Assembly (NCBI GenBank): GCA_001873435.1
Contig: MNZB01000004.1
Coordinates: forward strand, 239,538-303,537
Origin: Candidatus Pacebacteria bacterium CG2_30_36_39
GTDB taxonomy: Bacteria > Patescibacteriota > Microgenomatia > UBA1400 > PJMF01
DNA: 64,000 nt
Direction of reading: 5' to 3'
The notes below the pieces were generated by a model. That model saw only the letters and a program-made list of their open reading frames with translations. It ran no database searches and was not told where the DNA came from. The position numbers and the translations under genes were made by a program. This document shows positions 11,468 through 48,318 of this stretch, in pieces; position 1 is the first letter of the stretch, and every line of letters starts with the position of its first letter.

Positions 11468-14378
<2,911 letters not shown>

Positions 14379-14584: not shown

Positions 14585-14658
14585 TGGACCCTAAGGGGCT
14601 CGAACCCTTGGCCTCTACATTGCAAATGTAGCGCTCTAGCCAACTGAGCTAAGGGCCC
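14585..14658 (-). tRNA. tRNA-Ala (anticodon UGC), immediately upstream of the 23S rRNA.
   Basis: The reverse complement is GGGCCCTTAGCTCAGTTGGCTAGAGCGCTACATTTGCAATGTAGAGGCCAAGGGTTCGAGCCCCTTAGGGTCCA. It forms a cloverleaf, the anticodon loop is TTTGCAA, and the Ala-identity G3:U70 pair is present. Confidence 0.9.
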
Positions 14659-32792: not shown

Positions 32793-34019
32793 ATGGTTAA
32801 GTTTATCATCAAATCTCTCCTTAATAAGGCCCATTTTTTAAACTGGAATCAAGATGATTATTTAAAATATTTCCTATCAATTTCAAACAACAAAAATAAA
32901 ATTAAAACTATTCTTGCCAAAGAAAATACCCCTATTTTTATTGGAGATACAAAAATCATTGCTCAAAGACACCATGATTTAAAAAATGCCTTAGAAAAAA
33001 ACTGGCTAAATTATCAAATTAGTTATTCTTTCAAAACAAATTACTCAATTATCGAAAATAATTATTTTAAAAATAATTTTTGGGCTGAAGTTGTCTCAGC
33101 AAAAGAATACTTATTAGCTGAAAAAAATCAATATAAAAATATCATCTTTAATGGACCACTAAAAACAGAATCTTCTTTAAAACAAGCAATTAAAAATAAT
33201 TCAATTATTAATCTTGATCATGAATCAGAAATAACAAAAGTTGCAAAACATAATAACAAGACTAAAACAAATTTTGGTTTGAGACTAAATATTATTACAG
33301 ATCAAACTACTCAAAAAAGTAGATTTGGTTTTTCAATCGAAAATAAACAAGCTGAAAAAGCACTCAAGATAGCCAAGATTAATAATGTCTCTATTTCCGG
33401 ATTACATATTCACTTGGGAACAAATATTCCAAACTGTAAAAAATATCAACAGGCAGCTAAAAAAATTAGTGATTTTATTGTCAAAAACAAACTCACAAAA
33501 CAAATAAGATATATTGATTTTGGTGGTGGTTTTGTAAGTCATGCCAATCCACCAAACGACAGATTAAACTGGAATATTCCAGATATAGAAGAATATATCC
33601 AAGCAATTACAACCACATTGAAACAAGTTTTTCACCGAGAGAAAAAACCAATTTTGTTAGTAGAGCCAGGAAGATATTTGGTTGAAGATGCCATATCTTT
33701 ATTTTCCAGAATTGAAAATAAAAAAATTGAAAATCAAACACAATTAATTACTACTGACACCAGCATTAATATGCTACCCATAACTCATTATCGAAAACAT
33801 ATTGTGCAAATTGCAAAAGAAAACCTAAATATTAAAACTGGTAAAAAAATTAAAACCATCATTTATGGTGCAACCTGCCAAGAAGATGACATTCTATTTG
33901 AGGGTTATCTGCCAAAAATTTCAGAAAGTGATTATCTAATTTGGCACGCAACAGGAGCCTACAATGATTCCATGAACAGTAATTTTATTTTTGATAAACC
34001 AAAAACAGTTTTTATTTAA
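32793..34019 (+). CDS. Fold-III PLP-dependent decarboxylase (Orn/DAP/Arg decarboxylase family 2).
   Basis: 'SYSFKTN' contains the PLP lysine. Also 'GLHIHLGTN', 'YIDFGGGF' and 'LLVEPGRYLVEDA'. Confidence 0.75.
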   Translation: MVKFIIKSLLNKAHFLNWNQDDYLKYFLSISNNKNKIKTILAKENTPIFIGDTKIIAQRHHDLKNALEKNWLNYQISYSFKTNYSIIENNYFKNNFWAEVVSAKEYLLAEKNQYKNIIFNGPLKTESSLKQAIKNNSIINLDHESEITKVAKHNNKTKTNFGLRLNIITDQTTQKSRFGFSIENKQAEKALKIAKINNVSISGLHIHLGTNIPNCKKYQQAAKKISDFIVKNKLTKQIRYIDFGGGFVSHANPPNDRLNWNIPDIEEYIQAITTTLKQVFHREKKPILLVEPGRYLVEDAISLFSRIENKKIENQTQLITTDTSINMLPITHYRKHIVQIAKENLNIKTGKKIKTIIYGATCQEDDILFEGYLPKISESDYLIWHATGAYNDSMNSNFIFDKPKTVFI

Positions 34020-34031
34020 AAAAAAATAAAT

Positions 34032-34883
34032 ATGTTAAAAAAAGTAATCAACAAATTAAAAAAAGAAACAAAGAATCTTTTAGAGAAAAAGAAACTGCCT
34101 GATTATTTTAAATCAAATCAATTGGCCTGGAATACTGTCGCTCCATTGCATCAAGCTGCCAACCATCAATCTTTATTAAAAGAAGTACAACAACAAAAAT
34201 ATTCTTGTCTTAACCAAAATCAAATAACTGCCTTAAATGAAATTGGAGTTAAAAATAAGAAAGTTTTTCAACCAGCCTGCAATAACGGAATAGAGTTAAT
34301 ATCTATTAAAAAAATGGGTGCCAAAGAATGCGTCGGCTTTGATATCGCGGAAAAATTTATATTGCAAGCTCAAGAACTGGGAAAATCCGCCAATGTTGAT
34401 TGCCAATTTGTACAAAAAAATTTCTTTGATATTTCAGATAAACTAAAAAATCACTTCGACCTAGTGTTTGTTTCAGTCGGCACTCTCCCTTGGATGCTAG
34501 ATCTAAATAAGTTCATAAAAAATTCTAATAAGCTTCTCAAAAAAAGTGGCTACATTGTTATTAATGAGATGAACCCTTTGTTACATTGCCTAAACTATGA
34601 AAGCACCATAGAAAAAATTAAAATTGATAGATCATATTTTGCTGATCAACTTGATGTTAATAATATTTCCTTAGACTATTACAAACACAGCAAATATAAG
34701 GTTCCAACTCAATACTGCAAATACCACACCTTGGCAGAAATAATAAACACTCTAATCAAAAATAAGTTTAAAATAAACTTATATAATGAATATCCAGATG
34801 ATCCTTCATTGAGTTTCCAAAAATTAACTAGATCAAATAAAAAACTACCGATGAGCTACACTATAATTGCCCAAAAAATATAA
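34032..34883 (+). CDS. Class I SAM-dependent methyltransferase.
   Basis: 'VFQPACNNGIELISIKKMGAKECVGFDIAEKF' is SAM-binding motif I. 'LVFVSVGTL' is motif II. Confidence 0.6.
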   Translation: MLKKVINKLKKETKNLLEKKKLPDYFKSNQLAWNTVAPLHQAANHQSLLKEVQQQKYSCLNQNQITALNEIGVKNKKVFQPACNNGIELISIKKMGAKECVGFDIAEKFILQAQELGKSANVDCQFVQKNFFDISDKLKNHFDLVFVSVGTLPWMLDLNKFIKNSNKLLKKSGYIVINEMNPLLHCLNYESTIEKIKIDRSYFADQLDVNNISLDYYKHSKYKVPTQYCKYHTLAEIINTLIKNKFKINLYNEYPDDPSLSFQKLTRSNKKLPMSYTIIAQKI

Positions 34884-36156
34884 AATGAGCCCATTCTCTG
34901 CCCAGAACCTACTCAAAAAAATTAATCTATACAATCTAGCTTTGCTATTAATTGGTGTTTTTACTATCTTAAAAATAGCTAATATTACTCAAAGCACTCA
35001 TTATCATAGCGATGAATACTTTTCAATTTTATTAGTTAATAGCTACAAACCAATCGACTATTTCAAATTTAATACAGACGTGGGAAACCCGCCGTTTTAT
35101 TATTTAATGCTTGATAACTATTTATCTTTTTTTCCCACAAAAAATGAATTTGTTAGTAGATCATTATCAATAATATTTTTAATTGTTAGTTTGTTTTTTG
35201 TTATAAAAATTGCCGACAATATTTTTAAATCAAAATTAAATAAATTAGCCCTATTCACTCTTTTTTCTACCTCAGGAACAGTTATTAATTACTACACTCT
35301 AGCAAGGCCATACCCTCTGTATCTAACAATATTCATTATCATTATTTTTCTATTTACCAAAAAAAGAACAAATAAAATAAATTCAATGTTTATCATTATG
35401 TTAATTTTGGGCATGTTTACTCATTATGTTTTTTTTGTTATTTCAATTTGCTTTTTAATTTATTTTATCCTACAAAAAAATCTTAAAATGACCCTAGCCA
35501 TTGGGGCAAGTTTTTTAATTAGCTTTGGATTAAATGCAAAATATGTATATTTGTCGTTATTTGATAAAAACAATCAATATGCTTTTGACCAGTTTCAAGT
35601 ACAAACAATGAGCTTATTAGAACCAATCCGCGCTGCTTGGTTTAGAGGTTTTGTTTCATACCAAATCATTGCTATTTTATTAATAATATTGTTTTTCTAT
35701 TTGCTAAAAAATATCAAACATTCAAATATTAACTCTATAAATTATTCAATAATCAACATAACTATTATTAGTTATTTGGCATTTTTTATTCCACCCTTAT
35801 CAAGAATTTTTCCATCACTTACATATAAATTATCTTTAATTTTTCTATTGCAAATAGTTCTAATAAATTTATTTGATTCATTGCCAAACTTTAAAAGTAA
35901 AAAAATAATTGTTGGTCTATATATTGTTTGGTTAATTTTTACCTCTCCTCTAAAAAGGTTTGATGTCTTTCAACCAGAGATAGACGATTTATCTATGAAA
36001 CTAGATGCCATGAAAGCAAGTCAAGAAGTTCCGTGGGTTATAACTCAAAAATGCTTTGTTAATATGGTTCCATATTTCAAATATTATTTACCCAAAAACC
36101 AATTTAAATGTTTGGATAACCAAACCACCTTAGTAACTCCAATCATTCAGCAATAA
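34867..36156 (+). CDS. Polytopic membrane protein, GT-C-fold (ArnT/PMT-like) glycosyltransferase candidate.
   Basis: 429 aa with about 10 TM helices. An early loop has 'HYHSDEYFS', a DE motif. Confidence 0.4.
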   Translation: MPKKYKMSPFSAQNLLKKINLYNLALLLIGVFTILKIANITQSTHYHSDEYFSILLVNSYKPIDYFKFNTDVGNPPFYYLMLDNYLSFFPTKNEFVSRSLSIIFLIVSLFFVIKIADNIFKSKLNKLALFTLFSTSGTVINYYTLARPYPLYLTIFIIIIFLFTKKRTNKINSMFIIMLILGMFTHYVFFVISICFLIYFILQKNLKMTLAIGASFLISFGLNAKYVYLSLFDKNNQYAFDQFQVQTMSLLEPIRAAWFRGFVSYQIIAILLIILFFYLLKNIKHSNINSINYSIINITIISYLAFFIPPLSRIFPSLTYKLSLIFLLQIVLINLFDSLPNFKSKKIIVGLYIVWLIFTSPLKRFDVFQPEIDDLSMKLDAMKASQEVPWVITQKCFVNMVPYFKYYLPKNQFKCLDNQTTLVTPIIQQ

Positions 36157-36250
36157 AACTAATCACATCGAGTTAAAATAGCTAATATATTCTTTTTATA
36201 TGTGCTAATATTGTGGATATAAAGAAATCAAACAACATCCAAAGGAATAA

Positions 36251-37372
36251 ATGAAGTTTAATCAAAATATAACTGAAATCACTTTTGACGACGTTCTGCT
36301 TTTGCCTGGAAAATCAGATTTTTTGGTCGATAATGAAAAAAAAGTTGTTAATATCACTGGCAGAGTAACCAAAGATTTATTCCTCGAACTACCAATAATT
36401 TCAGCCCCAATGCCAGGAATCACCACCGCAGCAATGGCAATAGCCCTTGGAAAAGCTGGTGGCATGAGCGTTATCCACCCATTTCAATCAATTAAGAGCC
36501 AAGCTGAGCAAATCAGAATAGTTAAAGAAGCAAATGTAAAAGTTGCTGGCAGTATCTCTTTTAATAAAAACACTACTCTAAAAGATGTTGAAATATTATT
36601 AAAAGCAGGAGCTGATTTAATTTCAATTGAAACTGGCCATGCTCATAACCAACAAACCATAGAGTTTATTAGTAAAATTAAAAATACTTTCGAAAAAATT
36701 AGATTAAGTGCTTCTTTAGTAGTAACTGGAGAAGCCACTGAAGCCCTAATTAAAGCAGGCGCTGACAATATTAGAGTTGGAATTGGTGGTGGCTCACACT
36801 GTACCACCAGACTTGTTACTGGAGTTGGAAGACCACAACTTAGTGCCATTGAAGAATGTTATAAAGTAGCTAAAAAATATGACATCCCAATTATTTCTGA
36901 TACTGGCATTAAGTATTCCGGAGATTTACCAAAAGCTTTTGCTTTTGGAGCCGAAACAGTCATGATTGGTGGACTACTGGCTGGAACAGATGAGTGTCCT
37001 GGAGAAATAGTTGAAAAAGAAGGTAAAAAATATAAATATTCTTGGGGCATGTGCACTGATACTGCTTACAAACACAAAACTCCTTTTGAAAAACTGAAAC
37101 CAGAATACATTTTGCAATTAATTAAAAAAACCATCAAGAAAATTATTGGTAGAGCAGATTCTGATTCATTTAGAGAAAAAGACTTTGAAGAAGGAGTTGA
37201 AGCATTAGTTCCTTATCGTGGACCAGTTACCTCTATACTCAATCAACTAAGGGGCGGTCTCATTAGATCTATGTGGTATTTGGGTACAAAAAATATTAAG
37301 GAAATTGCCAAAAAAACCAGAGTGGTTATGGTTTCAAATAGCACTCCCCTAGAAAATATTCCTCGAATTTAA
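36251..37372 (+). CDS. IMP dehydrogenase/GMP reductase family enzyme without a CBS pair.
   Basis: '[15 protein letters not shown]'. Catalytic loop '[11 protein letters not shown]'. 373 aa. Confidence 0.8.
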
Positions 37373-37377
37373 AACAA

Positions 37378-38034
37378 ATGCTTAAATCAATTCTTAGAAA
37401 AACTAAGAAAATAATCGAAAAAAAACTAATCAAATATATAGTTTGGGATTTTGATGATACTTTGTATGTAAATCTCAAGCTTGGAACCAAACTAAAGAAA
37501 TGTTATCTAGATTATCTTAATGAAAAGAGTAAAGAAAATATTTCTTTTAGAGAATTTAATCTATTAACAAAAAATGGTTTGAGCTGGAGTGGTTTAGTCG
37601 CCAAAAAATTAAAAAAATCTGAAATTAAAATTATCAATGAAGTTGAAAAAAGATTTAATAAAAGCCAATATCTCAAAAAAAACTCATTACTGGTTAAACA
37701 ATTAGAAAAACTAACCAAATATCGTCACGTCATCTTGACTAATTCTCCAGCTTTTGAAGTAGAACAATGTCTTAAAAAAATTGGTTTTAAAAAGAAAAAT
37801 AATCTTGATTTTTTTCCTTTTGAAAAAATTATTGATTGTAATTTAAGTAAAAAATTAAAACCTGATTTAACTCCCTTTAAAAAAGTTACTGACTATACAA
37901 AAATTCATCCAATAAAACATTTAATGGTTGGCAATTCCTATCACAGTGATTTATTACCTGCAAAAAAAGCAGGTTTTCAAGCCATACTAATAGAAGAAAT
38001 TCCAGAATATTTAAAAATAAAACTCAAACAATGA
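37378..38034 (+). CDS. HAD-superfamily phosphatase (nucleotidase candidate).
   Basis: HAD motif I is 'VWDFDDTLY'. The gene sits 6 nt after the IMPDH-family gene. Confidence 0.6.
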   Translation: MLKSILRKTKKIIEKKLIKYIVWDFDDTLYVNLKLGTKLKKCYLDYLNEKSKENISFREFNLLTKNGLSWSGLVAKKLKKSEIKIINEVEKRFNKSQYLKKNSLLVKQLEKLTKYRHVILTNSPAFEVEQCLKKIGFKKKNNLDFFPFEKIIDCNLSKKLKPDLTPFKKVTDYTKIHPIKHLMVGNSYHSDLLPAKKAGFQAILIEEIPEYLKIKLKQ

Positions 38035-38972
38035 AAAAAAAACCTGAAATAATCATTGATACCGACGCTGGTGCAGATGATTTACTAGCAATAACACTTC
38101 TTTTTTCAGCCAATAGTTATTTAATTAAAAAAATTATTACTAGCTATGGCAGTTTTTCTCTAAAAGAATCTACTTCTAGAATTAATAAACTACTAAGCCT
38201 TATTGGAGCAGAAGATATTGCTGTCATAGAGACTGGTGCACAAAAACCCCTAAAAAGAAGCTTTGAACCCTATCACTTAATTCATGGTGATTTGTGGATT
38301 TCTGAAGAGCAAAAACATACAAAATTAAATATAAAAAAACTTGTTGATAATTTATTGCCAAAAACAGATTATTTTTGTCTAGGGCCTTTAACAAATCTAA
38401 GCAAGTTATTGGATGAAAAAGATTTTTTAAAAAAAATTAATAACATCTATATTATGGGTGGGGCAATTTCTTACCCTGGTAATGCTACACCATTAGCTGA
38501 AGCTAACTTTTTCTGGGATCCAGATGCTGTAGAAAAAGTTTTTAAATTGGCTAGTGAAAAAATTAGATTAATTCCCTTGAACATCACTGAACAAATTCAA
38601 CTTAATAATAAGGATATTAAATTCTTCAAAGAACAAAAAATTATTTCTGGATTTTTTAAACCATATTTGCACTATTACTTAAAAATTAAAAAATGGTTTT
38701 TAGATCCAAAAGATTATTTACAAAAAAAATACTCTGGAGCCTCAATTCATGACGTAGTAGCTGTTATTAGTTTGTTTGATAATAGAATTATCAACTTTAA
38801 GCCTATTTTGCTTGCTACTGATTTAATCAAAAAAGAACCAGGATTTATTTATCCAATTTTAAGACAAGAACAGCAATCAAATAAAAAAAATAGTTATAAA
38901 ATAATGACTGCAGTAAATATTAATCAAAAAGAGTTTTGGGAAACCTTTAATAAGGTATTGGTCTCTAGGTAA
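38031..38972 (+). CDS. Ribonucleoside hydrolase (IUNH family).
   Basis: N-terminal 'IIIDTDAGADDLLAI' is the DXDXXXDD Ca-binding motif. It overlaps the HAD gene by 4 nt. Confidence 0.85.
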   Translation: MKKKPEIIIDTDAGADDLLAITLLFSANSYLIKKIITSYGSFSLKESTSRINKLLSLIGAEDIAVIETGAQKPLKRSFEPYHLIHGDLWISEEQKHTKLNIKKLVDNLLPKTDYFCLGPLTNLSKLLDEKDFLKKINNIYIMGGAISYPGNATPLAEANFFWDPDAVEKVFKLASEKIRLIPLNITEQIQLNNKDIKFFKEQKIISGFFKPYLHYYLKIKKWFLDPKDYLQKKYSGASIHDVVAVISLFDNRIINFKPILLATDLIKKEPGFIYPILRQEQQSNKKNSYKIMTAVNINQKEFWETFNKVLVSR

Positions 38973-40203
38973 CAAAGTTTTTAATAAACAAATTTACTTC
39001 AGCTATTAAAGTATTTTTTCCATCAAAATCATGAAGTAATTTATCAACTGTCCTATATCTAGATTTGATTTCTCTCTTATGTTGTTCTTCTGTTTTAGCC
39101 AAAAACTTTAAAATTGAATTAACTAGCCTTTGTTGATTGGCTAAATAATATTTTAAACCTTCATATAAATAACCAACGTCTTCTGCATCTTTCTTGGGAT
39201 GATAAAAAGAAGCAGATAAACAACTATCACACTCAAAACCTTCTTTAAACATTTCATTAACATTTATAGTATGAGAAGTAGTTTGTTCTGGTAAAAGAAA
39301 TATTCTCTTTTTAAAATAAACTGATTCATAAATTCCGTTTTGACCTGGTTGCATAATTAAATAATCGCAATTAGCAATTAAGGACATATGCTCTTTAAAC
39401 GGCAGGGTTGTTATTATTTCTAAATTGTTAAATTTTTCTTGAATGTGACTTAGACTGGGCGTAACTTTTAAAACAATTCTGTAGTTATTTTTTGAATTTA
39501 CCTTATTCAAAACATTGCCAATTAAATTTGCGTAATCAACACTAAACTCATATCCAGTATTTGGATTTAACATTCCTCCCAACTGCACATAGATTAATTT
39601 TTTAGAATCTTTTTGATAAGTTTTGGGAAGTTTTTTTTCCGGAACCAAAGCACCAAATAATTCAATGCTGTGATTATATTTACTTAAAAAATCTACTCTT
39701 TTTTCTACCAATGTTCCAAATCGTTGAATTAGAGATTTGCTTGAGAATAAATGACCAAGAATAAATGGATAGTGTGTGTTTATATCAACTAATTCTGCTA
39801 ATTTTTTACCAAACAAAGCTGGAGTTTCTTTTTTAAGAGCAATAATTTTTCTATACAAATCAATAACTTTTTTTTCATCATATTGCCAAAACCACAAACA
39901 ATTATCGATATATAAACTAGGAATTCCTAGTTGCCATGATTTAATAACCAAAATTGGATCAAAACAAGAAATAACTGCTTCCACAGATCTCTCTGCCAAA
40001 GCTTTTTCCATATTTTCAGCTAAATCTACCCTGTAACCTTGTTGTTTAAAAAAGTTTTTCTGTTTTTCAGTTCCTAAAAATGAAAAATTCTGTTGTTTTT
40101 TGTTATCAACCAAAGATTGAGCCAAAATTGAAGTGGGACCCAAGCCAAAATCATGAGCACTTATTAAAATCTTGTGCTTTGGTTTGAAGAAACGAAAATT
40201 CAT
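38965..40203 (-). CDS. GT-B-fold glycosyltransferase (GT1/MGT/MurG-like).
   Basis: 'ISAHDFGLGPTS', 'VQLGGM', 'ANCDYLIMQPGQNGIYESVYFKKRIFLLP'. Confidence 0.5.
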   Translation of the reverse strand: MNFRFFKPKHKILISAHDFGLGPTSILAQSLVDNKKQQNFSFLGTEKQKNFFKQQGYRVDLAENMEKALAERSVEAVISCFDPILVIKSWQLGIPSLYIDNCLWFWQYDEKKVIDLYRKIIALKKETPALFGKKLAELVDINTHYPFILGHLFSSKSLIQRFGTLVEKRVDFLSKYNHSIELFGALVPEKKLPKTYQKDSKKLIYVQLGGMLNPNTGYEFSVDYANLIGNVLNKVNSKNNYRIVLKVTPSLSHIQEKFNNLEIITTLPFKEHMSLIANCDYLIMQPGQNGIYESVYFKKRIFLLPEQTTSHTINVNEMFKEGFECDSCLSASFYHPKKDAEDVGYLYEGLKYYLANQQRLVNSILKFLAKTEEQHKREIKSRYRTVDKLLHDFDGKNTLIAEVNLFIKNFVT

Positions 40204-41813
40204 TTGTGTTTTTTATTAAATCTTTGCAAATCTTTTATAAAATAATAAAAATAACTAGTAATTTTTTCTGGTTTGGTTAAGATTTGTCTTAAGTAATATT
40301 TGGGGAAAACAAAAAGATCATGAGCTCTCTGTTTTAATGCCAAAGCAGCTCTAAGTTTTTGATTTTGACGATCAGCCTCAATCAAGCTCTCTGTCCAACC
40401 TGGAATACTTTCCCATTTTTGCTGAACATGATTTGAAAGTTTGGCAAATTTTGCCCAAATCTTTTCCGTATCTCTATCTGAATAATCATTATAGAAAAAT
40501 ATTTTTGTCATATCTCTATCACCAGATGATAAATCAAACATTAAAAAGTCATCCCAAACCAGCTTGTCAGTATCAAGTATTCCCATGTCTACAGCCTCTG
40601 TCCAAAGTTTAGTCCCAGGATATGGAGTAGTAACAGAATAACCCAGTGATAAAGCATTTTTTTGGTTTGCAAACCACTTTGCAAGTTGATATGTTTCTTC
40701 AGTTTCTTCTTTGGTTTCAGTTGGTGCAAAAAGCATAAAACTACCAAAAACAAAGATATTATATTTACCAAATAGTTTTGTTGAGTTTTTTACTTGCTCA
40801 TTTGTTAATTGACCATCTTTATATCGCTTTAAAAGTCTTGCGCTACCAAACTCAATACCAATAAAAACTGAAATTGCTCCAAATTCTTTAAGAATCTGCA
40901 CAAACTCCTCATCAATTAGATTGGCTCGAATAAAAAGATGAGAGAAAAACACTTTACCCAGCAGATTTCTTTCTTTTAATTCTCTAATCAAGTCTCTTGC
41001 TCTTGGCTTTGATATGGCAAAGGTATCATCCATGATTTGGAAGGATTGAACACCATAATCCTTATATAAGGCCTCGATTTCATCTACCACTTTTTTAGCA
41101 CTAAAGTATCTCACCCCAGTCCAAACAACTCGGTGGGCACAAAATGCACAATTATAAGGGCAACCTCTGGCTGAATAAATTCTTACAGTTTTAAATACTT
41201 GAGGTTTACCATCGACTAAAAATACTTGATTTTGAAAGATCTTTTCAGCGTGCAGCAAACTCCAATCCAATGCGTCTGCTTTTTTTGTATCAATTGCTAA
41301 ACGAATCTGAGTTTTAACTATTTTTCCCAATTTATTAATAAAAGTTATACCTGGAATTTTCTCTAATTTGGCATCACTAACAGATGTTTTATTTTTCTTA
41401 AAAACACTCACCAACTCTGCCAATGTAGCTTCTCCTTCTCCCAAAACACCAATATCAAATGGCTGTTTTAGTTTTTCTGGCAAAGAAGAGATGTGATAGC
41501 CACCTATTATTGTTGTAACTGGATATTTTTCTTTAATTTTGTTTGCAATATCTGCTGCAAGTGAGTAAAAAGCTGTAATTACAGAAAAACCAATTAGGTT
41601 TGGTTCGAATTTCTCCACAATTTTAACTGGATCCTCAAAATCTAAATCAATAATTCTAATTTGTTTTCTAGATAAAATCTTATTTTTTACCAAATAATCA
41701 GCCAAATACAATAAATTAAGAGGAGCCTCATCTAAATAACTACGATCAACTACATTAATTAAACAAAGTCTGAATTCTTTACTATTAATTTTATTAACTG
41801 GAAATGATTTCAT
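40200..41813 (-). CDS. Cobalamin-binding radical SAM enzyme (class B).
   Basis: N-terminal Rossmann B12-binding region. The 'RGCPYNCAFCAH' CxxxCxxC cluster is present. 537 aa. Confidence 0.8.
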   Translation of the reverse strand: MKSFPVNKINSKEFRLCLINVVDRSYLDEAPLNLLYLADYLVKNKILSRKQIRIIDLDFEDPVKIVEKFEPNLIGFSVITAFYSLAADIANKIKEKYPVTTIIGGYHISSLPEKLKQPFDIGVLGEGEATLAELVSVFKKNKTSVSDAKLEKIPGITFINKLGKIVKTQIRLAIDTKKADALDWSLLHAEKIFQNQVFLVDGKPQVFKTVRIYSARGCPYNCAFCAHRVVWTGVRYFSAKKVVDEIEALYKDYGVQSFQIMDDTFAISKPRARDLIRELKERNLLGKVFFSHLFIRANLIDEEFVQILKEFGAISVFIGIEFGSARLLKRYKDGQLTNEQVKNSTKLFGKYNIFVFGSFMLFAPTETKEETEETYQLAKWFANQKNALSLGYSVTTPYPGTKLWTEAVDMGILDTDKLVWDDFLMFDLSSGDRDMTKIFFYNDYSDRDTEKIWAKFAKLSNHVQQKWESIPGWTESLIEADRQNQKLRAALALKQRAHDLFVFPKYYLRQILTKPEKITSYFYYFIKDLQRFNKKHK

Positions 41814-41835
41814 ATTATTGATTAATCTTATTTAA

Positions 41836-42561
41836 CTAACTAATATTTTTACTTTTTTTATAATTTTTAATCACCTCTTTGCCACCATCACCAAGGATTT
41901 CACCATTCTCCAACCAAATAATTCTTTCACAGGATTTGGAAATAAAATCAATCAGGTGACTTACTATTACTACCACTTTTCCTTTTTTTAAAAAAGAATC
42001 AACTCTTTTAGCGGTTTTAATCTTAAACTCTTCGTCCCCTACAGCAATCATTTCGTCTAAAAGAAAAATATCTGGATCACTATTAATTGCCACAGCAAAA
42101 CCTAATCTTAATTTCATGCCTTTGGAATAAGTAAAAAGAGGTTCATCTATAAACCTACCGATATCAGCAAAACCAATGATCTCATCCATTTTCGCGTTAA
42201 TCTCTTTCTTATTCATTCCCAAAACCATGCCATTAATCATAATATTTTCTCTACCAGATAAATCTGGGTGAAAACCAGCTTCTAGATCAATTACAGAAAC
42301 AACTTTACCAATTACTTTTAGTTCGCCGGATGTTGGTTGTGAAATATCAGAGATAATCTTAAGAATGGTTGTTTTTCCAGATCCATTTGGACCAACTATT
42401 CCCACTTTTTGTCCTTTAAAAATATCTAAATTAATTCTATTTAAAGCAACTAGTTTTTCTGGCCTAGATCTACCGATTATCTGCTCTATAAGAGTAGGAC
42501 GGTGTCCTAGTAGAACATATTCTTTAGTAATGTTTCTTAGTGAGATAACTGGTTTATTCAT
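41836..42561 (-). CDS. ABC transporter ATP-binding protein, polysaccharide/teichoic-acid exporter type (Wzt/TagH-like).
   Basis: Walker A 'GIVGPNGSGKTT', signature 'YSKGMKLRL', Walker B 'IFLLDE'. Confidence 0.85.
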   Translation of the reverse strand: MNKPVISLRNITKEYVLLGHRPTLIEQIIGRSRPEKLVALNRINLDIFKGQKVGIVGPNGSGKTTILKIISDISQPTSGELKVIGKVVSVIDLEAGFHPDLSGRENIMINGMVLGMNKKEINAKMDEIIGFADIGRFIDEPLFTYSKGMKLRLGFAVAINSDPDIFLLDEMIAVGDEEFKIKTAKRVDSFLKKGKVVVIVSHLIDFISKSCERIIWLENGEILGDGGKEVIKNYKKSKNIS

Positions 42562-42563
42562 AA

Positions 42564-43397
42564 TTAAACATAATCACTAAAATTTTTACTATCTTTATAA
42601 AAGATATAGAAACCAACTATAAAAAATAAGCTCGCCGACAATAAACTAAACATCCAGATTGGTTCTGGAGCTGAATTTGAAATAAAAAATATATTTCTCA
42701 TCATAACCACAACCAAACTCAGTGGATTTAAAAATAATACCCATCTAATAAATTCTGGGATTACGTTTTGAGAATAAATAATTGGAGTTAAATAAAATCC
42801 TAATGGCAATGAGGCTTGCATAATAAAACTAACATCTCTAAATCTGATATTAAGAGATGAAACTAATAGCCCTAAGCCACTGGTAAAAATAACTAAACAA
42901 ATTATGGCTAATAATAGAAGAAGGAGATTAATAAAAATAACATGTTGCCAAACGGCTACGAATAAATACAACAATACAAATGAAATTAATAAGTGAAACA
43001 AATTAGCAGCAACTATTGATAAAACTAATATTTCTCTAGGAAAATTTGCTTTCTGTAAAAGAAATCTTTGATGAACAAAAACTGGAGTGATCTGGTTTAA
43101 GCTTGAAGAAAAGAAATTCCAAATTAATAAACCAACAAATAAAAATAAGAAGTAGTTTTCTGTTTTTACTGGCATGAAAAACTGAAAAACGGCTCCAATA
43201 ACAAACATTTGTAGTATTGGATTAATAATCATCCAGGCAAAACCCAAGCCAGCATTCTTATATCTAGCCTTTATTTCTTTCTCTGTCATCGTCCATAGAA
43301 AATCCAACCAATATTGTTGTTTATCATTTAGTTTAAATAGTTTTGATTCACTAAATACCATATCGAGACTTAATTTTAACAGAATATTGGACAACAA
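42564..43397 (-). CDS. ABC-2-type permease (Wzm/TagG-like).
   Basis: 277 aa with 6 TM helices. It is directly upstream of, and stop-start coupled to, the ATPase. Confidence 0.7.
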   Translation of the reverse strand: MLSNILLKLSLDMVFSESKLFKLNDKQQYWLDFLWTMTEKEIKARYKNAGLGFAWMIINPILQMFVIGAVFQFFMPVKTENYFLFLFVGLLIWNFFSSSLNQITPVFVHQRFLLQKANFPREILVLSIVAANLFHLLISFVLLYLFVAVWQHVIFINLLLLLLAIICLVIFTSGLGLLVSSLNIRFRDVSFIMQASLPLGFYLTPIIYSQNVIPEFIRWVLFLNPLSLVVVMMRNIFFISNSAPEPIWMFSLLSASLFFIVGFYIFYKDSKNFSDYV

Positions 43398-43469
43398 ATA
43401 TGTTATTTATATCACCAATATAATTATGCTAGACTATACTCACTTTTATTATCTCAATATGATCGACCT

Positions 43470-44159
43470 ATGATAAATATCATTGATTCAGCCAATATCA
43501 CCAATAATAGCCAAGAAGGCTCTAAAGACAATCCTCCTCAAATTAAGCTCCCTGATGCCACTGGTGTTGCTTCAGCTCAATTTCAAAAAAAGTTTTCTGA
43601 AAAACCACAGAGAAAAGGCTTATCCAAATATTTAATTGCCGGAATTCTCTTGTTACTTTTGGCCATCGGAGGCGGAGCAAGTCTTTATTTAATGAGTATT
43701 AATCAAGACCTTAGACAACAAGCTGATCAAGGAGATTACACTAATCCAACTGATCCACCAGAAGAGCCTACAACTGCCCCGACCACTGCCCCAACTACTG
43801 AACCTACTGGCGAACCAACTACCGAACCTACAACTGAACCCACTGGTGAACCAACTACCGAACCTACGGGCGAACCAACGGATGGGCCAACTGGTGAACC
43901 TACCACTGAACCCACTGGTGAACCTACAACTGAACCAACCACAGATCCTGGAAACGGTGGTGGTGGAAGTAGCAGTTCTTCAAGTTCATCATCAAGTAGT
44001 ACGGCTGTTGTAAATATCAATAATGGAAGCACCACAATAAGAGTTCAACCAACTCTGCCTCCTCAATTGCCACAAACTGGACCAGAAGATTGGCTAAAAT
44101 ATTTACAAGTAGGCTTGGGAGCCTTAGGAGTTGGAGCCTTATTCCTACTCTTCTTATAA
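43470..44159 (+). CDS. Surface protein with an N-terminal TM + INQDLRQQA motif, a TEPTGEP tandem repeat, a poly-Ser run and a C-terminal LPQTG + hydrophobic tail.
   Basis: '...LYLMSINQDLRQQAD', (PTTEPTGE)n, 'GGGGSSSSSSSSSSSS', 'LPQTGPEDWLKYLQVGLGALGVGALFLLFL*'. Confidence 0.65.
   Translation: MINIIDSANITNNSQEGSKDNPPQIKLPDATGVASAQFQKKFSEKPQRKGLSKYLIAGILLLLLAIGGGASLYLMSINQDLRQQADQGDYTNPTDPPEEPTTAPTTAPTTEPTGEPTTEPTTEPTGEPTTEPTGEPTDGPTGEPTTEPTGEPTTEPTTDPGNGGGGSSSSSSSSSSSTAVVNINNGSTTIRVQPTLPPQLPQTGPEDWLKYLQVGLGALGVGALFLLFL
43765..43940 (+). repeat. In-frame imperfect tandem repeat (~24-nt unit) encoding the (P-T-T/G-E-P-T) linker.
   Basis: 'gaacctactggcgaaccaactaccgaacctacaactgaacccactggtgaaccaactaccgaacctacgggcgaacc...' recurs. 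Confidence 0.7.
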
Positions 44160-44180
44160 AACAATTAGAAATAAATTTAA

Positions 44181-44208
44181 AAGCCTAGCCAAAAGCTAGG
44201 CTTTTTTA
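44181..44208 (+). terminator. Intrinsic terminator after the 43470 gene.
   Basis: 9-bp stem AAGCCTAGC-caaaa-GCTAGGCTT followed by TTTTTT. Confidence 0.8.
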
Positions 44209-44295
44209 ATATTTTAACAATTAAAACCAAACTTTCACCGAAAAAACAAATAATCTCTCATTGACCAGCAAATAACAAAGGCTGTATTCTAGATA

Positions 44296-45384
44296 GTGAC
44301 TAGATTAACTAGTTACAGTTCTATGGATTTTAATCAACCAAATATTAGCAAAATCCAAGATAGACCAGAAGAAAATAAAAGTGACTCTGGTTTAATTTTT
44401 CGTCCAAAAAAACCAAACAACTCAAAGATATTTTTTGGTCTAATCTCCCTCTTCGTTTTGGCAGTTGGAGGTCTAGTTGGAACATACCTAATTGGCATTA
44501 ATCAAGACCTTAGACAACAAGCCGACTCTGGCACTTATGTTAATGGCCAATGTGAGCCAAATTACTGGTCAGTTAATGGCCAATGCGTTTTGGAAAACTG
44601 TGATGACTATGATAATGACGGAATTATTGTTTGTGGTGTTGGTCATGGAATTTGTACTGAAGATAGTCTTGGTGGAGATTGGTGTGACAATCCAAACACC
44701 ACCGATCATGTTGAAACATGCGGAGAAACAGGACAAATTCGCTGCCAATGTGGACCGGGAAGTGACCAAGGATATTGGGTAATTGGCTCTGGAACAGGTA
44801 GTTGTGACGATCTCTGTGAAGACGCCAATGTTATTTGTACTGACTGTCCACCAGAAGAGCCTCCAGAAATTACCAATCCTCCAGAAGAACCAACTGCAAC
44901 TCCTCCTATTACTATATATACTCCTACACCAACTCCTACTGTTAATCCTAGTATAACTATAACCCCTACCCCAACCACTCCTCCAGGCGTAACTCTGACT
45001 CCCACACCTACAACTCCAATTGGACCACAATGTCGCAATATTGAGATGTACAACACAACAGGAGGAACAAGTACAATAATGGAAGAAAATGACGACGCTG
45101 CTTTAGTGCCTAATCAAAGCTCTGTTAGATTCGTCTGTAGTAATTTTCAAGAGAATAATTTACCAACTGGTTACTTCTATGCCTTTAGAATCTTTGAGCC
45201 TTGCGGTAGTGAAAACCATGAGACTCCTCTAGAGTTTGTAAATGCAGAAGGAGAAAATGGCATTAGTTACAACATTGAACTCAGTGGAGACTATATGGCC
45301 CAATGCTCAGTTTGTACTGTTGATGATGCAGGAGATACTGTTTGTGACTGGGAAAGCTTAACACCACAAGAATGTGGAAACTAA
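44296..45384 (+). CDS. Cys-rich secreted/signal-anchored protein with the same INQDLRQQA post-TM motif and a P/T-rich linker.
   Basis: '...TYLIGINQDLRQQADSGTYVNGQCEPNYW...', many Cys, 'TPTPTPTVNPSITITPTPTTPPGVTLTPTPTTP'. Confidence 0.6.
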   Translation: MTRLTSYSSMDFNQPNISKIQDRPEENKSDSGLIFRPKKPNNSKIFFGLISLFVLAVGGLVGTYLIGINQDLRQQADSGTYVNGQCEPNYWSVNGQCVLENCDDYDNDGIIVCGVGHGICTEDSLGGDWCDNPNTTDHVETCGETGQIRCQCGPGSDQGYWVIGSGTGSCDDLCEDANVICTDCPPEEPPEITNPPEEPTATPPITIYTPTPTPTVNPSITITPTPTTPPGVTLTPTPTTPIGPQCRNIEMYNTTGGTSTIMEENDDAALVPNQSSVRFVCSNFQENNLPTGYFYAFRIFEPCGSENHETPLEFVNAEGENGISYNIELSGDYMAQCSVCTVDDAGDTVCDWESLTPQECGN

Positions 45385-45387
45385 AAA

Positions 45388-46374
45388 ATGACTGACTGGA
45401 ATAAAAAACCACTAGCTGAAATGCCAGAAACTGCAAAGAAAGAATCTTCTAGCGTGCCTCAGTTTTCTCAATCACCTATAAAAAAGAGTGATCCAAAGAA
45501 AACAATTTTTGCTATTTTAGGCCTAGTCTCATTCTTTATTCTCGGTGTTGCTGGTGTATTAATCTCTCAAAAACAATATTTAGACAAAAATGTTACTGCT
45601 CCCAATGCCCCAGGATCTCAACCAGCTGCTTATATAAACAAAGCTAGTTGTCATCTAACCTTTACAGTCGGAACACCAACAACAGTAGTCAAAACTGCTT
45701 GTGGATTTAGTCCTTGTGAAACTGATAACGACTGTATTGATGGTTTAAGCTGTGTTACTAGCTCTGGCGACTCTATCGGAGAAGGTGCAAAATACTGTTC
45801 TCAACCTGAATTTGAAGATGCCTGTATTCTTAATCCAGGAGTAGATGCTTGTTGTACCGAGCCAACTCCAGTGCCAGGAGAATGTGCTGCCGAATGTGTA
45901 AGCGATACTGACTGTGACACTGGTTTAACTTGTGTTGGACCGGAAGATGGGGCTAAGTTCTGTTCAGAGCCAGAATTTGAAGATGCCTGTATCAACAACC
46001 CAAGCTCTGAATCTTGTTGTACCGAGCCAACTCCAACCATAACTGGCAATCCAACTGCAACCCCGAATCCAACTACAACTCCTAACCCAACTAATCCTCC
46101 AGGCGGTGGAAGCTCATCTAGCTCAAGTTCTTCATCTAGTTCATCAGTTGTTGTAAATGTTGATAACAGCACTACTACAAACACCACTACTCAAAACACT
46201 ACAACAAAACCTGGAACTACCACAAAAACCACTACTCCAAAAACCACCACCAAAGGTGCTCAACCAGAATATCCAGAAGAACTTCCAAAAACTGGACCAG
46301 AAGAATGGCTACAATATCTCCAAGTTGGCCTAGGCGCACTAGGAGTTGGAGCCTTATTACTGCTCTTCTTATAA
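45388..46374 (+). CDS. Cys-rich surface protein with an internal ~50-aa duplicated Cys module, a poly-Ser run and a C-terminal LPKTG + hydrophobic tail.
   Basis: N-terminal TM helix. The duplicated module is '...GAKYCSQPEFEDACILNPGVDACCTEPTP' / 'GAKFCSEPEFEDACINNPSSESCCTEPTP'. 'GGGSSSSSSSSSSSS'. C-terminus 'LPKTGPEEWLQYLQVGLGALGVGALLLLFL*'. Confidence 0.65.
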   Translation: MTDWNKKPLAEMPETAKKESSSVPQFSQSPIKKSDPKKTIFAILGLVSFFILGVAGVLISQKQYLDKNVTAPNAPGSQPAAYINKASCHLTFTVGTPTTVVKTACGFSPCETDNDCIDGLSCVTSSGDSIGEGAKYCSQPEFEDACILNPGVDACCTEPTPVPGECAAECVSDTDCDTGLTCVGPEDGAKFCSEPEFEDACINNPSSESCCTEPTPTITGNPTATPNPTTTPNPTNPPGGGSSSSSSSSSSSSVVVNVDNSTTTNTTTQNTTTKPGTTTKTTTPKTTTKGAQPEYPEELPKTGPEEWLQYLQVGLGALGVGALLLLFL

Positions 46375-46449: not shown

Positions 46450-46522
46450 GCGTGCGTAGCTCAATCGGCAGAGCTCCAAGCTTATACCTTGGTGGTTCTA
46501 GGTTCAAGTCCTAGCGCACGCA
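46450..46522 (+). tRNA. tRNA with anticodon UAU (tRNA-Ile(UAU)-type, decoding AUA).
   Basis: GCGTGCGTAGCTCAATCGGCAGAGCTCCAAGCTTATACCTTGGTGGTTCTAGGTTCAAGTCCTAGCGCACGCA folds as a canonical cloverleaf: acceptor stem 7 bp, D stem 4 bp, anticodon stem CCAAG/CTTGG with loop C-U-UAU-A-C, T stem 5 bp with TTCAAGT. CCA is not encoded. Confidence 0.8.
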
Positions 46523-46563
46523 CCCAAAGTAATTTAAAAGACTATAATTTAAAACGAATAAAT

Positions 46564-47610
46564 ATGAAAAAAATAATTAAAAAACTCTCAAATCCCTTGA
46601 TTAACTTATGGAAAACTAAAAAATGGTTAGTTATAGGTATTGTTATTTTATTACTAATAGCTGGAAATAATTTCTATAAACAAGCAAAAAATAAAACAGT
46701 TTTATCCTTTGTTCATCCTAGTATTCAAACTATTACAAAAACCCTAGACGTATCTGGAATCATTGATGCTAAAGAAAAAGCCAACCTACATTTTGCAGCT
46801 GGTGGAAAATTAATTTATTTGGGAGCAAAAGAAGGCAGTTGGGTAAAAAAGTGGCAAAACATCGCCACTATTGACCAACGAGCTGCTGTTAAAACCCAAG
46901 AAAAATCCCTCAATAACTATGCAAAAGAAAGATTGGATTGGGACCAACGCCAAAGCGACATTGGAGATGGAACCACGGTAGATGAAGAATTAAAAAGAAC
47001 CATTGATAAAGAACAATATGACCTCAATAATTCAGTATTAGATGTCGAGCTTTCTGCCATATCAACTACCAACAACACAATGTCTGCTCCATTTGAAGGC
47101 ATTTTAGTAAGCAGCCCAACAACTGTTACTGGAATTCAACTATCAGCCACAGATTCTTTTTTACTTGTAAATCCAAAAACATTAACCTTTAAAGCTTTAG
47201 TAGATGAATCTGACATTGCCTTAATTGCTCAAAACCAAACAGCAACATTAGAATTTGATGCTTATCCAAATGAAAAGCTACAAAGTTTTGTAAACTATAT
47301 CTCATTCCAAAGCGTTCCATCCTCAAGTGGAACTGCTTTTATTGTTGAATTACCAGTAGAAGCTAGTGATTTAAATAAGTTTCGCTTGGGCATGAACGGT
47401 GACGCCAAAATTGAACTAGAAACAAAACAAAATGTTTTAACTATTCCAGTGGTTGCTGTTAAAGAACGAGATGGTAAAGCATATGTTGAAATTAAAACTG
47501 GTAAAAATACTGCTGAAGAAAAAGAAATCTCAGTTGGCCTAGAAACAGATGACTACATTGAAGTCATTGGTGGCCTAACTGAAAATGATGAAATAGTGGT
47601 ACCAGAATAA
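46564..47610 (+). CDS. Efflux-pump periplasmic adaptor (HlyD/MacA family).
   Basis: The internal ATG in the track frame gives MKKIIKKLSNPL. The upstream part of track ORF 46489 overlaps the tRNA. One TM helix then a beta-barrel/lipoyl adaptor pattern. Confidence 0.75.
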   Translation: MKKIIKKLSNPLINLWKTKKWLVIGIVILLLIAGNNFYKQAKNKTVLSFVHPSIQTITKTLDVSGIIDAKEKANLHFAAGGKLIYLGAKEGSWVKKWQNIATIDQRAAVKTQEKSLNNYAKERLDWDQRQSDIGDGTTVDEELKRTIDKEQYDLNNSVLDVELSAISTTNNTMSAPFEGILVSSPTTVTGIQLSATDSFLLVNPKTLTFKALVDESDIALIAQNQTATLEFDAYPNEKLQSFVNYISFQSVPSSSGTAFIVELPVEASDLNKFRLGMNGDAKIELETKQNVLTIPVVAVKERDGKAYVEIKTGKNTAEEKEISVGLETDDYIEVIGGLTENDEIVVPE

Positions 47611-47625
47611 CCAGTCTAAAAAAAT

Positions 47626-48318
47626 ATGCCACGTAAAAATGCCAACATCGTGCTCGAGCTTCAAGATGTAACCAAGGAATATTTAATTGGTTCTCAAAAA
47701 ATTCATGCTTTGAACGGGATTTCTCTCAAAGTCAGAGAAGGAGATTTTTTATCTGTCATGGGACCGTCTGGATCTGGAAAGTCAACATTTTTACAGGTAG
47801 CTAGTATCCTGGCCACAGTTAGTTCTGGAAAAATACTAATTAATGGCAAAGACACCTCAAAATATGACGAAGTAGCCCGTGCTCACTTAAGAAACAAAGA
47901 AATTGGCTTTATTTTTCAAAACTTCAACCTGCTCCCCAAAACCTCAGCCTTAGAAAATGTTGCTTTACCATTGGTATATGCCGGCATAGATGAAGCTACT
48001 AGGTTGGAAATGGCAAAAGATATGTTGGAAAAAGTTGGACTTGGAGATAGGCTGCATAACACCCCAGCTCAGTTATCTGGAGGCCAACAACAAAGAGTGG
48101 CCGTGGCCAGAGCTTTAATCAACAACCCCGCTATTATTTTTGCTGATGAGCCAACTGGAAATTTAGATTCAAAATCTGGCAAGGAAGTTGAAAAAATCCT
48201 TGGAAAATTAAGCAAAGAAGGCAAAACCATTATTATGGTTACCCACGAACCAACTATTGCAAAAATAGCCACCTCGCACATCGAGATTCACGATGGAAAG
48301 ATCAAACATGAATCTTAA
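47626..48318 (+). CDS. ABC transporter ATP-binding protein (MacB/LolD-type).
   Basis: Walker A 'GPSGSGKST', signature 'LSGGQQQRVAVARAL', Walker B 'IIFADEPTGNLD'. Confidence 0.9.
   Translation: MPRKNANIVLELQDVTKEYLIGSQKIHALNGISLKVREGDFLSVMGPSGSGKSTFLQVASILATVSSGKILINGKDTSKYDEVARAHLRNKEIGFIFQNFNLLPKTSALENVALPLVYAGIDEATRLEMAKDMLEKVGLGDRLHNTPAQLSGGQQQRVAVARALINNPAIIFADEPTGNLDSKSGKEVEKILGKLSKEGKTIIMVTHEPTIAKIATSHIEIHDGKIKHES

Follow-up and report, generated by a model that had tools for sequence, protein, structure and literature searches.

A four-gene operon containing a B12-type radical SAM gene and a glycan exporter

We analyzed a 64,000-nucleotide (nt) stretch of Candidatus Pacebacteria bacterium CG2_30_36_39 (hereafter, the window), with a focus on a gene for a radical S-adenosylmethionine (SAM) protein that carries a B12-binding-type domain (hereafter, rSAM). 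Positions 38965 to 43397 hold exactly four open reading frames (ORFs), all on the minus strand. In the order of transcription, they encode a Wzm-like permease of the ATP-binding cassette (ABC) 2 type, a Wzt/TagH-like ATPase, the rSAM, and a 412-amino-acid (aa) protein with a predicted GT-B glycosyltransferase fold (Table 1). Because the Wzm and Wzt genes are separated by only 2 nt, the Wzt and rSAM genes by 22 nt, and the stop codon of the rSAM gene overlaps the start codon of the last gene by 4 nt (ATGA), the four genes form one translationally coupled operon. A preliminary description, made from the sequence alone, had already recognized this co-oriented cluster, which the ORFs, their domains, and their spacing confirm, but it had placed the rSAM gene directly upstream of the exporter, when the gene in fact lies 3′ of the exporter genes. 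The operon is the right-hand end of a surface glycan region that extends from about 20.4 to 43.4 kb.

The four ORFs are long for DNA of 30% G+C, have strong domain matches and conserved orthologs, and therefore are not chance ORFs. The G+C content of about 30% does not mark the rSAM gene as foreign. A promoter-like site in the 72-nt gap upstream of the Wzm gene is a consensus match only and thus weak evidence, and a scan of the window for promoters and terminators found no more sites than in shuffled sequence. The same 90%-identity clusters include two hypothetical proteins of a Candidatus Pacebacteria metagenome-assembled genome, COU63_05060 (rSAM) and COU63_05055 (412-aa protein).

With an ABC-2 permease and a separate ATPase encoded in a glycan locus, the first two genes represent a Wzm/Wzt-type glycan ABC exporter. 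In NCBIfam, the permease comes closest to galactan Wzm/RfbD (galactan_ABC_perm, 69 bits) and KpsM (38 bits), and the ATPase to galactan Wzt/RfbE (189 bits) and TagH (168-171 bits), all below the equivalog cut-offs. The ABC domain and its flanks fill the 241 aa of the window's Wzt, which has no C-terminal carbohydrate-binding domain and falls outside the cap-recognizing Wzt subclass of the Escherichia coli O8/O9a type.

Table 1. Coordinates of the operon, of other features of the window, and of genes in related loci (L numbers)
Feature	Position	Strand	Support or remark
Wzm-like ABC-2 permease, 277 aa, first operon gene	42564..43397	-	PF01061, 76 bits
Wzt/TagH-like ABC ATPase, 241 aa, nucleotide-binding domain only	41836..42561	-	PF00005 (ABC_tran), 84 bits
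B12-binding-domain rSAM protein, 537 aa	40200..41813	-	PF02310, 54.4 bits; PF04055, 74.5 bits
N-terminal Rossmann-type B12-binding domain of rSAM, aa 21-135	41409..41753	-	PF02310, E = 1.4e-14
CxxxCxxC [4Fe-4S]/SAM motif CPYNCAFC of rSAM, C218/C222/C225	41139..41162	-	Translation
Ortholog-specific C-terminal helical domain of rSAM, aa 446-533	40215..40478	-	AlphaFold (AF2) model, paralog coverage
GT-B fold protein (GT1/GT28-like), 412 aa, last operon gene	38965..40203	-	Predicted fold; no family above threshold
Promoter-like site upstream of Wzm gene	43448..43476	-	Consensus match
Methyltransf_24-type SAM methyltransferase, 225 aa	32113..32790	-	Homologs carry PF13578
Wzy_C (O-antigen ligase/O-oligosaccharyltransferase-type) membrane protein, 500 aa	29710..31212	-	PF04932, 48.9 bits
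Second Wzy_C protein, 863 aa	17831-20422	+
NodU/CmcH-type carbamoyltransferase	21808-23538	+	53%-identical ortholog in rSAM locus L086
Six genes: Orn/DAP-type pyridoxal phosphate (PLP) decarboxylase, SAM methyltransferase, 429-aa no-family protein, CBS-less IMP dehydrogenase/GMP reductase, HAD nucleotidase-like protein, nucleoside hydrolase	32793-38972	+	Decarboxylase: FslC, 196 bits
Surface protein, 229 aa, divergent from Wzm gene	43470..44159	+	PF04886 PT repeat, LPQTG
Three paralogous membrane proteins	43470-46374	+
HlyD-like/ABC ATPase/MacB-FtsX tripartite exporter	46489-49516	+
5S rRNA gene	11241-11357	-
23S rRNA gene, complete	11464-14382	-
tRNA gene near rRNA genes	14585-14658	-
HerA/TrwB-like ATPase, 778 aa	52655-54991	-
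ATP-dependent DNA ligase	61808-63595	-
Wzm/Wzt near rSAM ortholog	Window, L002, L003, L085, L087, L090, L094, L096, L099, L104, L105, L106
Second B12-rSAM paralog	L095 1044-3942; L096 7531-10738; L106 178-3314; L094 2594-4276; L086 6061-7527; L002 11660-13090		Tandem or nearby
QueC/Vut_1 sub-clade	L002 5347-7982; L086 9016-14263; L093 269-1302; L097; L098 3105-4058
Orn/DAP-type decarboxylase	Window 32793-34019; L086 14296-15438; L106 8756-9838; L088; L089
Pyridoxal_deC-type decarboxylase	L001 6719-7975; L002 2911-4194

The rSAM has a predicted class B architecture and defines a small ortholog group

Both domain matches of the rSAM exceed their cut-offs, which are 32.1 bits for the B12-binding domain and 29.5 bits for PF04055 (Radical_SAM; aa 214-378). 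The CPYNCAFC motif is invariant across 27 orthologs, as are G104, H107, G125, E126, and E128 of the B12-type domain (GGYHIS and GEGE motifs) and a DDTF motif; the ortholog alignment has 36 invariant columns in total. Given the CxxxCxxC motif and a confidently modeled barrel (AlphaFold; predicted local distance difference test [pLDDT] score, 88.7; predicted template modeling score, 0.87), we place the protein in the radical SAM superfamily. Beyond this motif it has only one further cysteine, and therefore carries no auxiliary-cluster or SPASM domain. The top matches of the model among solved structures (Foldseek) are MgmA/QCMT (9ccb, E = 1.7e-21), TsrM, OxsB, AprD4, CysS, and TokK, and a profile-sequence search of solved structures returned the same list. 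The domain matches and the model agree on a class B architecture, in which a predicted N-terminal Rossmann B12-type domain precedes the radical SAM barrel, as the preliminary description had proposed. Judged from this architecture, the rSAM is probably dependent on cobalamin.

All 25 NCBIfam matches of the rSAM fall far below the cut-offs. The highest-scoring candidates that we rejected were BchE (128.2 bits; equivalog cut-off, 481) and HpnJ (121.3 bits; cut-off, 577.6), hopanoid genes being absent from the window and the related loci. We also rejected ApyD (103 bits; cut-off, 750) and TIGR03975 (66 bits; cut-off, 282), for which the intergenic spaces of the window are too short to fit a precursor gene, as well as QCMT (94 bits; cut-off, 360) and PhpK (91 bits; cut-off, 600). 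Across BchE, HpnJ, PhpK, QCMT, ApyD, HpnR, BzaD, AprD4, and other families, scores are 3- to 30-fold below the cut-offs. Because the BchE score is so far below its cut-off, the name "anaerobic Mg-protoporphyrin IX monomethyl ester cyclase" that some rSAM homologs bear in JGI annotation is an over-annotation. Assignment to a subfamily with a non-glycan substrate was one outcome that, by the preliminary description, would have spoken against a glycan role; no peptide, tRNA, chlorophyll, or hopanoid equivalog family was reached.

Among 5.8 billion proteins, we found 28 full-length clusters of rSAM orthologs (P0001-P0028; at least 383 bits, 37-69% identity, 495-543 aa). Below them, scores fall abruptly to 255 bits, and the matches are paralogs of about 470 aa that cover 66-84% of the window rSAM. 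By these sequence comparisons, the rSAM defines a small, distinct ortholog group outside every curated family. The part that the shorter paralogs leave uncovered includes a C-terminal domain of four helices in the AF2 model. The last 95 aa have a net charge of +3 to +20 in 27 of 27 orthologs and a maximum hydrophobic moment of 0.5-0.9, and no transmembrane segment was found in the C-terminal tail of these orthologs.

The exporter is the conserved partner of the rSAM orthologs

We collected 21 distinct ortholog loci by exact look-ups and by a metagenome scan with an ortholog-specific sub-alignment. The control consisted of 45 long loci with paralogous B12-rSAM genes (26-33% identity) among the matches listed. 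In 12 of the 21 ortholog loci, Wzm/Wzt genes adjoin the rSAM gene or lie within 6 kb of it (Table 1). Synteny with Wzm/Wzt in relatives, whose absence the preliminary description had named as a ground for rejection, holds in eight of the nine loci that extend 5 kb or more to each side; the ninth (L086) carries a divergent ABC ATPase and an unclassified 262-aa protein. The remaining ortholog loci end at a contig edge near the rSAM gene. A Wzm-like permease is present in 3 of the 45 control loci among the matches listed. The differences are statistically significant (Fisher's exact test, P = 1.3e-6 for 8/9 versus 3/45, and P = 1.6e-5 for 12/21 versus 3/45), with P values that are optimistic because related loci share ancestry.

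Exporter-linked rSAMs are only 38-52% identical to the window rSAM, and the genes are variably arranged, on the same strand, convergently, or with other genes in between. When neighboring ORFs were clustered, wide recurrence was limited to Wzt (12 loci), Wzm (11 loci), and a Methyltransf_24 protein (7 loci). The other neighbors are glycan genes, namely, Bac_transf, GT1/GT2/GT4, WecG, DegT, GFO_IDH_MocA, carbamoyltransferase, Wzy_C, and methyltransferase genes. The rSAM is thus a glycan-locus enzyme, and its conserved partner is the exporter itself.

Many ortholog loci also contain a second B12-rSAM paralog in tandem or nearby (Table 1), and these pairs suggest that a single product receives more than one radical-based modification. 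One sub-clade of rSAM genes is flanked by genes for a QueC-like PP-loop protein and a Vut_1 (YhhQ-type) transporter, among GT2, DegT, and SPASM-rSAM genes, and L086 adds a small QueF/GTP-cyclohydrolase-I-like ORF near its rSAM gene. In L002 and L093, a Cys-rich, zinc-ribbon-like ORF of 93 aa (59% identity) lies directly upstream of the rSAM gene.

Collinear loci lack the rSAM and keep the rest

Two Pacebacteria loci, L088 (GCA_964412775.1) and L089 (GCA_020849455.1), are gene-for-gene collinear with positions 28.8-46.4 kb of the window. The common order starts with unknown proteins and the PT-repeat protein, followed by Wzm, Wzt, and the homolog of the 412-aa protein, then by nucleoside hydrolase, HAD, IMP dehydrogenase (IMPDH), an unknown protein, methyltransferase, and decarboxylase, and finally by Methyltransf_24, GT2, Wzy_C, and another unknown protein. 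In both loci, the 412-aa homolog follows Wzt directly, after a gap of 15-40 nt, and tblastn detected no rSAM within 10 kb. The loci of the closest rSAM orthologs, L090 (69% identity) and L091 (71%), have the order of the window, with the rSAM followed by the 412-aa homolog. Because even the more distant L085 keeps Wzm-Wzt-rSAM with an adjoining 412-aa homolog, and because the divergence of the rSAM parallels that of its neighbors, the simplest (most parsimonious) history is that the L088/L089 lineage lost the rSAM.

Evidently, the polymer can be made and exported without the rSAM, which is dispensable for assembly and export. Since syntenic loci lack the rSAM but keep the rest of the locus, the step that it catalyzes would be a decoration of the polymer, outside the core pathway. 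When the window, L090, and L088 lineages are compared, Wzt is 73-78% identical throughout, while Wzm is 71% identical between the two loci with the rSAM (window and L090) and 55-59% identical to the loci without it. Divergence of Wzm would be expected if the transported chain differs with the presence of the rSAM, and the sequences of these three lineages give a small hint in this direction.

The 412-aa protein has a predicted GT-B fold

The 412-aa protein belongs to a very small family: a search of 5.8 billion proteins yielded only four clusters at 90% identity, and 296 distant representatives were found among 1.84 billion. Its model consists of two Rossmann-like halves, with a putative nucleotide-sugar site in the C-terminal half, as in GT-B enzymes. 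All family members share the invariant stretch PG-NGIYES ... LLPEQ, which resembles the nucleotide-sugar motif of GT1 enzymes. Fold comparison retrieved the GT1/GT28 enzymes CalG4, YojK, plant UGTs, and MurG at 8-15% identity, and a sequence search of the PDB returned nothing even at E = 10. The protein has no Pfam or NCBIfam membership, and its only NCBIfam match is cytosylglucuronate synthase (E = 9e-5; 21.7 bits; cut-off, 300). The GT-B transferase of the preliminary description is therefore supported at the level of the predicted fold.

Among distant homologs of the 412-aa protein, P0133 and P0137 are fused to SLOG/LOG-like domains and P0183 to a GFO_IDH_MocA oxidoreductase, and P0125 (959 aa) has a C-terminal half with no assigned domain.

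A proposed role in tailoring of the exported glycan

We propose that the rSAM carries out accessory glycan tailoring tied to an ABC-transporter-dependent surface glycan pathway, and we put the probability of this reading a little above one-half (about 0.55). According to this proposal, the glycan would grow on a lipid carrier on the cytoplasmic side of the membrane, and the GT-B enzyme would add a residue, possibly a terminal one. The rSAM would reductively cleave SAM at its [4Fe-4S] cluster to form a 5′-deoxyadenosyl radical, which, probably with methylcobalamin as the methyl donor, would modify an unactivated sugar carbon. Wzm/Wzt would then export the modified chain. The basic, amphipathic C-terminal helical domain may hold the rSAM at the membrane or at an anionic lipid-linked substrate, and the modification would be an optional decoration that is needed for neither polymerization nor export.

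If the rSAM is a tailoring enzyme, C-methylation would be its most likely chemistry by analogy with GenK, GenD1, and MoeK5, although we give it somewhat less than an even chance. Methylation is the most common reaction of class B rSAM enzymes, and C-methyltransferases occur in every characterized group (review); sugar C-methylation in particular is established for GenK, GenD1, Fms7, and MoeK5 (reviews). The main alternative, also by analogy, would be a rearrangement, dehydration, or epimerization like those of HpnJ, OxsB, or AprD4, and HpnJ provides a precedent within the same class for a sugar-ring rearrangement on a lipid-linked substrate (review). By sequence, methylases and non-methylases of class B are not separable (reviews). 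The C-methylation put forward in the preliminary description is thus the most common precedent and nothing more, and the earlier reading is partly supported: strongly for the genomic context and not at all for the chemistry.

Several observations weigh against our proposal. The substrate and the reaction are read from the gene neighborhood only, and the two best curated-family scores belong to non-methylases (BchE, 128 bits; HpnJ, 121 bits). A B12-like Rossmann domain alone does not prove the use of cobalamin: AprD4, one of the top structural matches, has, like ArsL, a related Rossmann domain that does not bind cobalamin (review). Genes for cobalamin transport or salvage, which the preliminary description had suggested looking for, are absent from the 54 window ORFs scanned, a result that is uninformative for the whole genome. 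The bare Wzt ATPase, with no cap-binding domain, weakens a role in a chain-terminating cap, and the argument from Wzm divergence is based on three lineages only. The model of the 412-aa protein is of moderate confidence (pLDDT, 68.6, from a four-sequence alignment). Moreover, the rSAM and the GT-B protein are not an obligate pair: the 412-aa homolog accompanies the rSAM in 4 of the 21 loci (window, L090, L091, and L085) and occurs without it in 2. Finally, the substrate of the rSAM might be a soluble nucleotide sugar in place of a lipid-linked chain.

This last possibility, in which the rSAM makes an unusual nucleotide-activated sugar (C-branched, deoxygenated, or epimerized) from a soluble precursor and is near Wzm/Wzt only because they share a locus, seems to us rather unlikely, but several points favor it. 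Genes for modification of nucleotide sugars (DegT, GFO_IDH_MocA, and rSAM/SPASM) lie beside the orthologs in L002, L003, L087, L093, and L094, the rSAM has no transmembrane segment, and most characterized sugar-acting rSAM enzymes use soluble substrates (reviews). Yet it is the exporter, and no particular sugar-pathway gene, that is conserved as a partner across loci, and the basic amphipathic tail specific to the orthologs suggests contact with a membrane or a polyanion. Loss of the rSAM while the rest of the locus stays is also easier to reconcile with a late decoration than with a building block that a glycosyltransferase requires. The same tail would suit a membrane substrate, and HpnJ (121 bits), "lipid biosynthesis B12-binding/radical SAM protein" (89 bits), and HpnR (70 bits) are among the best family matches, so that the rSAM could modify a lipid, such as the polyprenyl carrier or a glycolipid anchor, in place of the sugar chain. 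We consider this improbable: the family cut-offs, at 360-650 bits, are far above those scores, genes for lipid synthesis do not recur near the orthologs, and HpnJ itself works on the glucosamine ring of its glycolipid.

Two further explanations draw on individual neighbors of the rSAM. The operon abuts genes for a nucleoside hydrolase, a HAD nucleotidase, and an IMP dehydrogenase, the sole NCBIfam match of the 412-aa protein is cytosylglucuronate synthase, its distant homologs include SLOG/LOG fusions, and QueC-like, Vut_1, and QueF-like genes flank one rSAM sub-clade. Taken together, these observations could indicate nucleobase or nucleoside chemistry, with a nucleoside-like or 7-deazapurine-derived product and the GT-B protein as a base glycosyltransferase. 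We find this still harder to accept than lipid modification, given that the cytosylglucuronate synthase match scores 21.7 bits against a cut-off of 300, that the window and most ortholog loci lack QueC and Vut_1, and that the nucleoside genes are on the other strand and equally conserved in loci without the rSAM. Nucleoside hydrolase, HAD, and IMPDH genes are typical salvage genes of candidate phyla radiation (CPR) bacteria. The explanation to which we assign the least credence, a very small one, is that the rSAM and the ABC-2 transporter mature and export a ribosomally synthesized and post-translationally modified peptide (RiPP). B12-rSAM enzymes are common RiPP tailors, ApyD and a RiPP C-methyltransferase family are among the matches (103 and 66 bits), ABC-2 transporters also take part in peptide export and immunity, and in L002 and L093 the rSAM is preceded by a conserved Cys-rich ORF of 93 aa. 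That ORF, however, occurs in one sub-clade only and is zinc-ribbon-like, in the window the 22-nt gap and the overlap are too short to fit a precursor gene, the best names of the transporter are those of glycan exporters (Wzt/RfbE, TagH, Wzm, and KpsM), and glycosyltransferases and sugar-modifying genes fill every locus. None of these explanations fits the conserved exporter partner and the pattern of gene loss as well as tailoring of the exported glycan does.

More tentatively, and as a minority possibility, we suggest a combined scenario. The rSAM would represent the first cobalamin-dependent rSAM family dedicated to a cell-envelope glycan and would place a radical-derived mark (C-methyl or other) on the lipid-linked chain at the exporter. 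After export by Wzm/Wzt, Wzy_C-type transferases would attach the chain to the Pro/Thr-rich, sortase-anchored surface proteins encoded nearby. In these host-dependent CPR bacteria, the surface coat would thus change whenever a B12-requiring step is gained or lost, and it would rely on cobalamin scavenged from the community.

If the rSAM modifies an exported surface glycan, cell-envelope polysaccharides would join antibiotics, pigments, lipids, and peptides as targets of cobalamin-dependent radical chemistry, and a new sugar structure would be predicted in Patescibacteria, whose envelopes are chemically almost unknown. The window and L090 on one side and L088 and L089 on the other form a natural presence/absence pair. 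The class B rSAM enzymes comprise more than 80,000 sequences in more than 100 groups, most of them uncharacterized (review), and the ortholog group described here comes with a clear pathway context. Neither the class of enzyme nor the type of exporter is new by itself; what appears to be new is their combination in a dedicated ortholog group with its own predicted C-terminal domain, found so far only on Patescibacteria-like contigs.

Surroundings of the operon

The surface glycan region that ends with the operon contains genes for an NAD-dependent epimerase/dehydratase, a NodU-like carbamoyltransferase, two GDSL/SGNH proteins, a WecG/TagA-family transferase, one GT4 and two GT2 glycosyltransferases, Wzy_C, Methyltransf_24, an Orn/DAP-type PLP decarboxylase, and a second methyltransferase. 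Homologs of the Methyltransf_24 protein are 40-53% identical in L001, L002, L003, L086, L104, and L106, and 73-74% identical in the rSAM-less L088 and L089. Given the carbamoyltransferase, the glycan may be O-carbamoylated.

The genes at 32793-38972 form a tight six-gene operon that mixes glycan-type and purine-salvage genes and is conserved intact in L088 and L089. In several loci, a PLP decarboxylase gene adjoins the Methyltransf_24 gene, and the decarboxylases have two unrelated folds (Table 1). This looks like non-orthologous replacement of the same step, which perhaps makes an amine substituent.

The window has two Wzy_C proteins in a region of the ABC-transporter type that would need no Wzy polymerase, a combination that resembles protein O-glycosylation of the WsaB/PglL type. 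On the other side of the operon, the three paralogous proteins encoded at 43470-46374 share an N-terminal transmembrane helix and an "INQDLRQQAD" motif, and they are kept beside Wzm in L088, L089, and L001. The first of them, the 229-aa surface protein, has Pro/Thr-rich (T/G)EPT repeats, a poly-Ser tract, and a C-terminal LPQTG sorting signal, and its position is kept in L088 and L089; the second of the three paralogs is Cys-rich with Pro/Thr tracts. It is possible that the proteins from this stretch are the O-glycosylation acceptors for the two Wzy_C proteins.

Further away, the window contains 23S and 5S rRNA genes. Because Rfam found no 16S rRNA gene in the 64-kb window, the 16S gene is not linked to the 23S-5S genes here. 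The annotated TTG start of the HlyD-like ORF of the tripartite exporter overlaps a tRNA gene (46450-46522). The remaining features of note are the HerA/TrwB-like ATPase and the DNA ligase genes listed in Table 1.

Comparison with known systems

The preliminary description had considered a modification of this kind rare in characterized O-antigen or teichoic acid pathways. In agreement with this, the literature searched does not describe this rSAM ortholog group, nor does it contain a characterized B12-rSAM from the pathway of an O-antigen, teichoic acid, capsule, or S-layer glycan. At the level of the class, the closest known parallels are GenK, GenD1/GntE, and Fms7 of aminoglycoside pathways and MoeK5, which acts on the phosphoglycolipid moenomycin. 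These enzymes have the same architecture of a B12 Rossmann domain and a CxxxCxxC barrel and carry out late tailoring at unactivated sugar carbons. GenK, MoeK5, and their group belong to actinomycete antibiotic pathways, whereas the window rSAM is linked to an exporter and has its own predicted C-terminal helical domain.

HpnJ, the second-best curated family match, aligns over aa 58-419 of the rSAM. It is a class B non-methylase with a proposed ring contraction of the glucosamine of bacteriohopanetetrol glucosamine and, therefore, acts on a sugar carried by a membrane lipid. It differs from the rSAM in its genomic context, which for the rSAM consists of Wzm/Wzt and glycosyltransferases with no hopanoid genes, and its family cut-off is not reached. 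The best profile and fold matches, MgmA/QCMT (the methyl-coenzyme M reductase glutamine C-methyltransferase), TsrM, OxsB, TokK, and CysS, share the arrangement of Rossmann domain and barrel. The solved class B structures are 14-20% identical to the rSAM, with a sequence alignment to 9ccb that covers the barrel only (profile positions 191-401), and the substrates of these enzymes are proteins, tryptophan, nucleotides, and carrier-bound small molecules.

In gene order, the operon resembles systems in which a modifying enzyme is encoded right after the exporter. E. coli O8/O9a has the order wzm-wzt-wbdD. The slg cluster for the S-layer glycan of Geobacillus stearothermophilus has wzm-wzt-wsaE with overlapping codons, the same order as in the window, and WsaE is a chain-modifying/terminating methyltransferase encoded right after wzt (review). 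The terminal cap suggested in the preliminary description retains this positional analogy, but it loses the counterpart on the exporter side, since the window Wzt has no cap-reading C-terminal domain; for E. coli O8/O9a, the C-terminal domain of Wzt is reported to determine substrate specificity. Known terminators are also ordinary SAM methyltransferases or kinases, while the window enzyme is a radical SAM protein. The resemblance to Geobacillus extends beyond gene order, to the Wzy_C-type ligases/oligosaccharyltransferases in the region and the Pro/Thr-rich surface proteins encoded next door.

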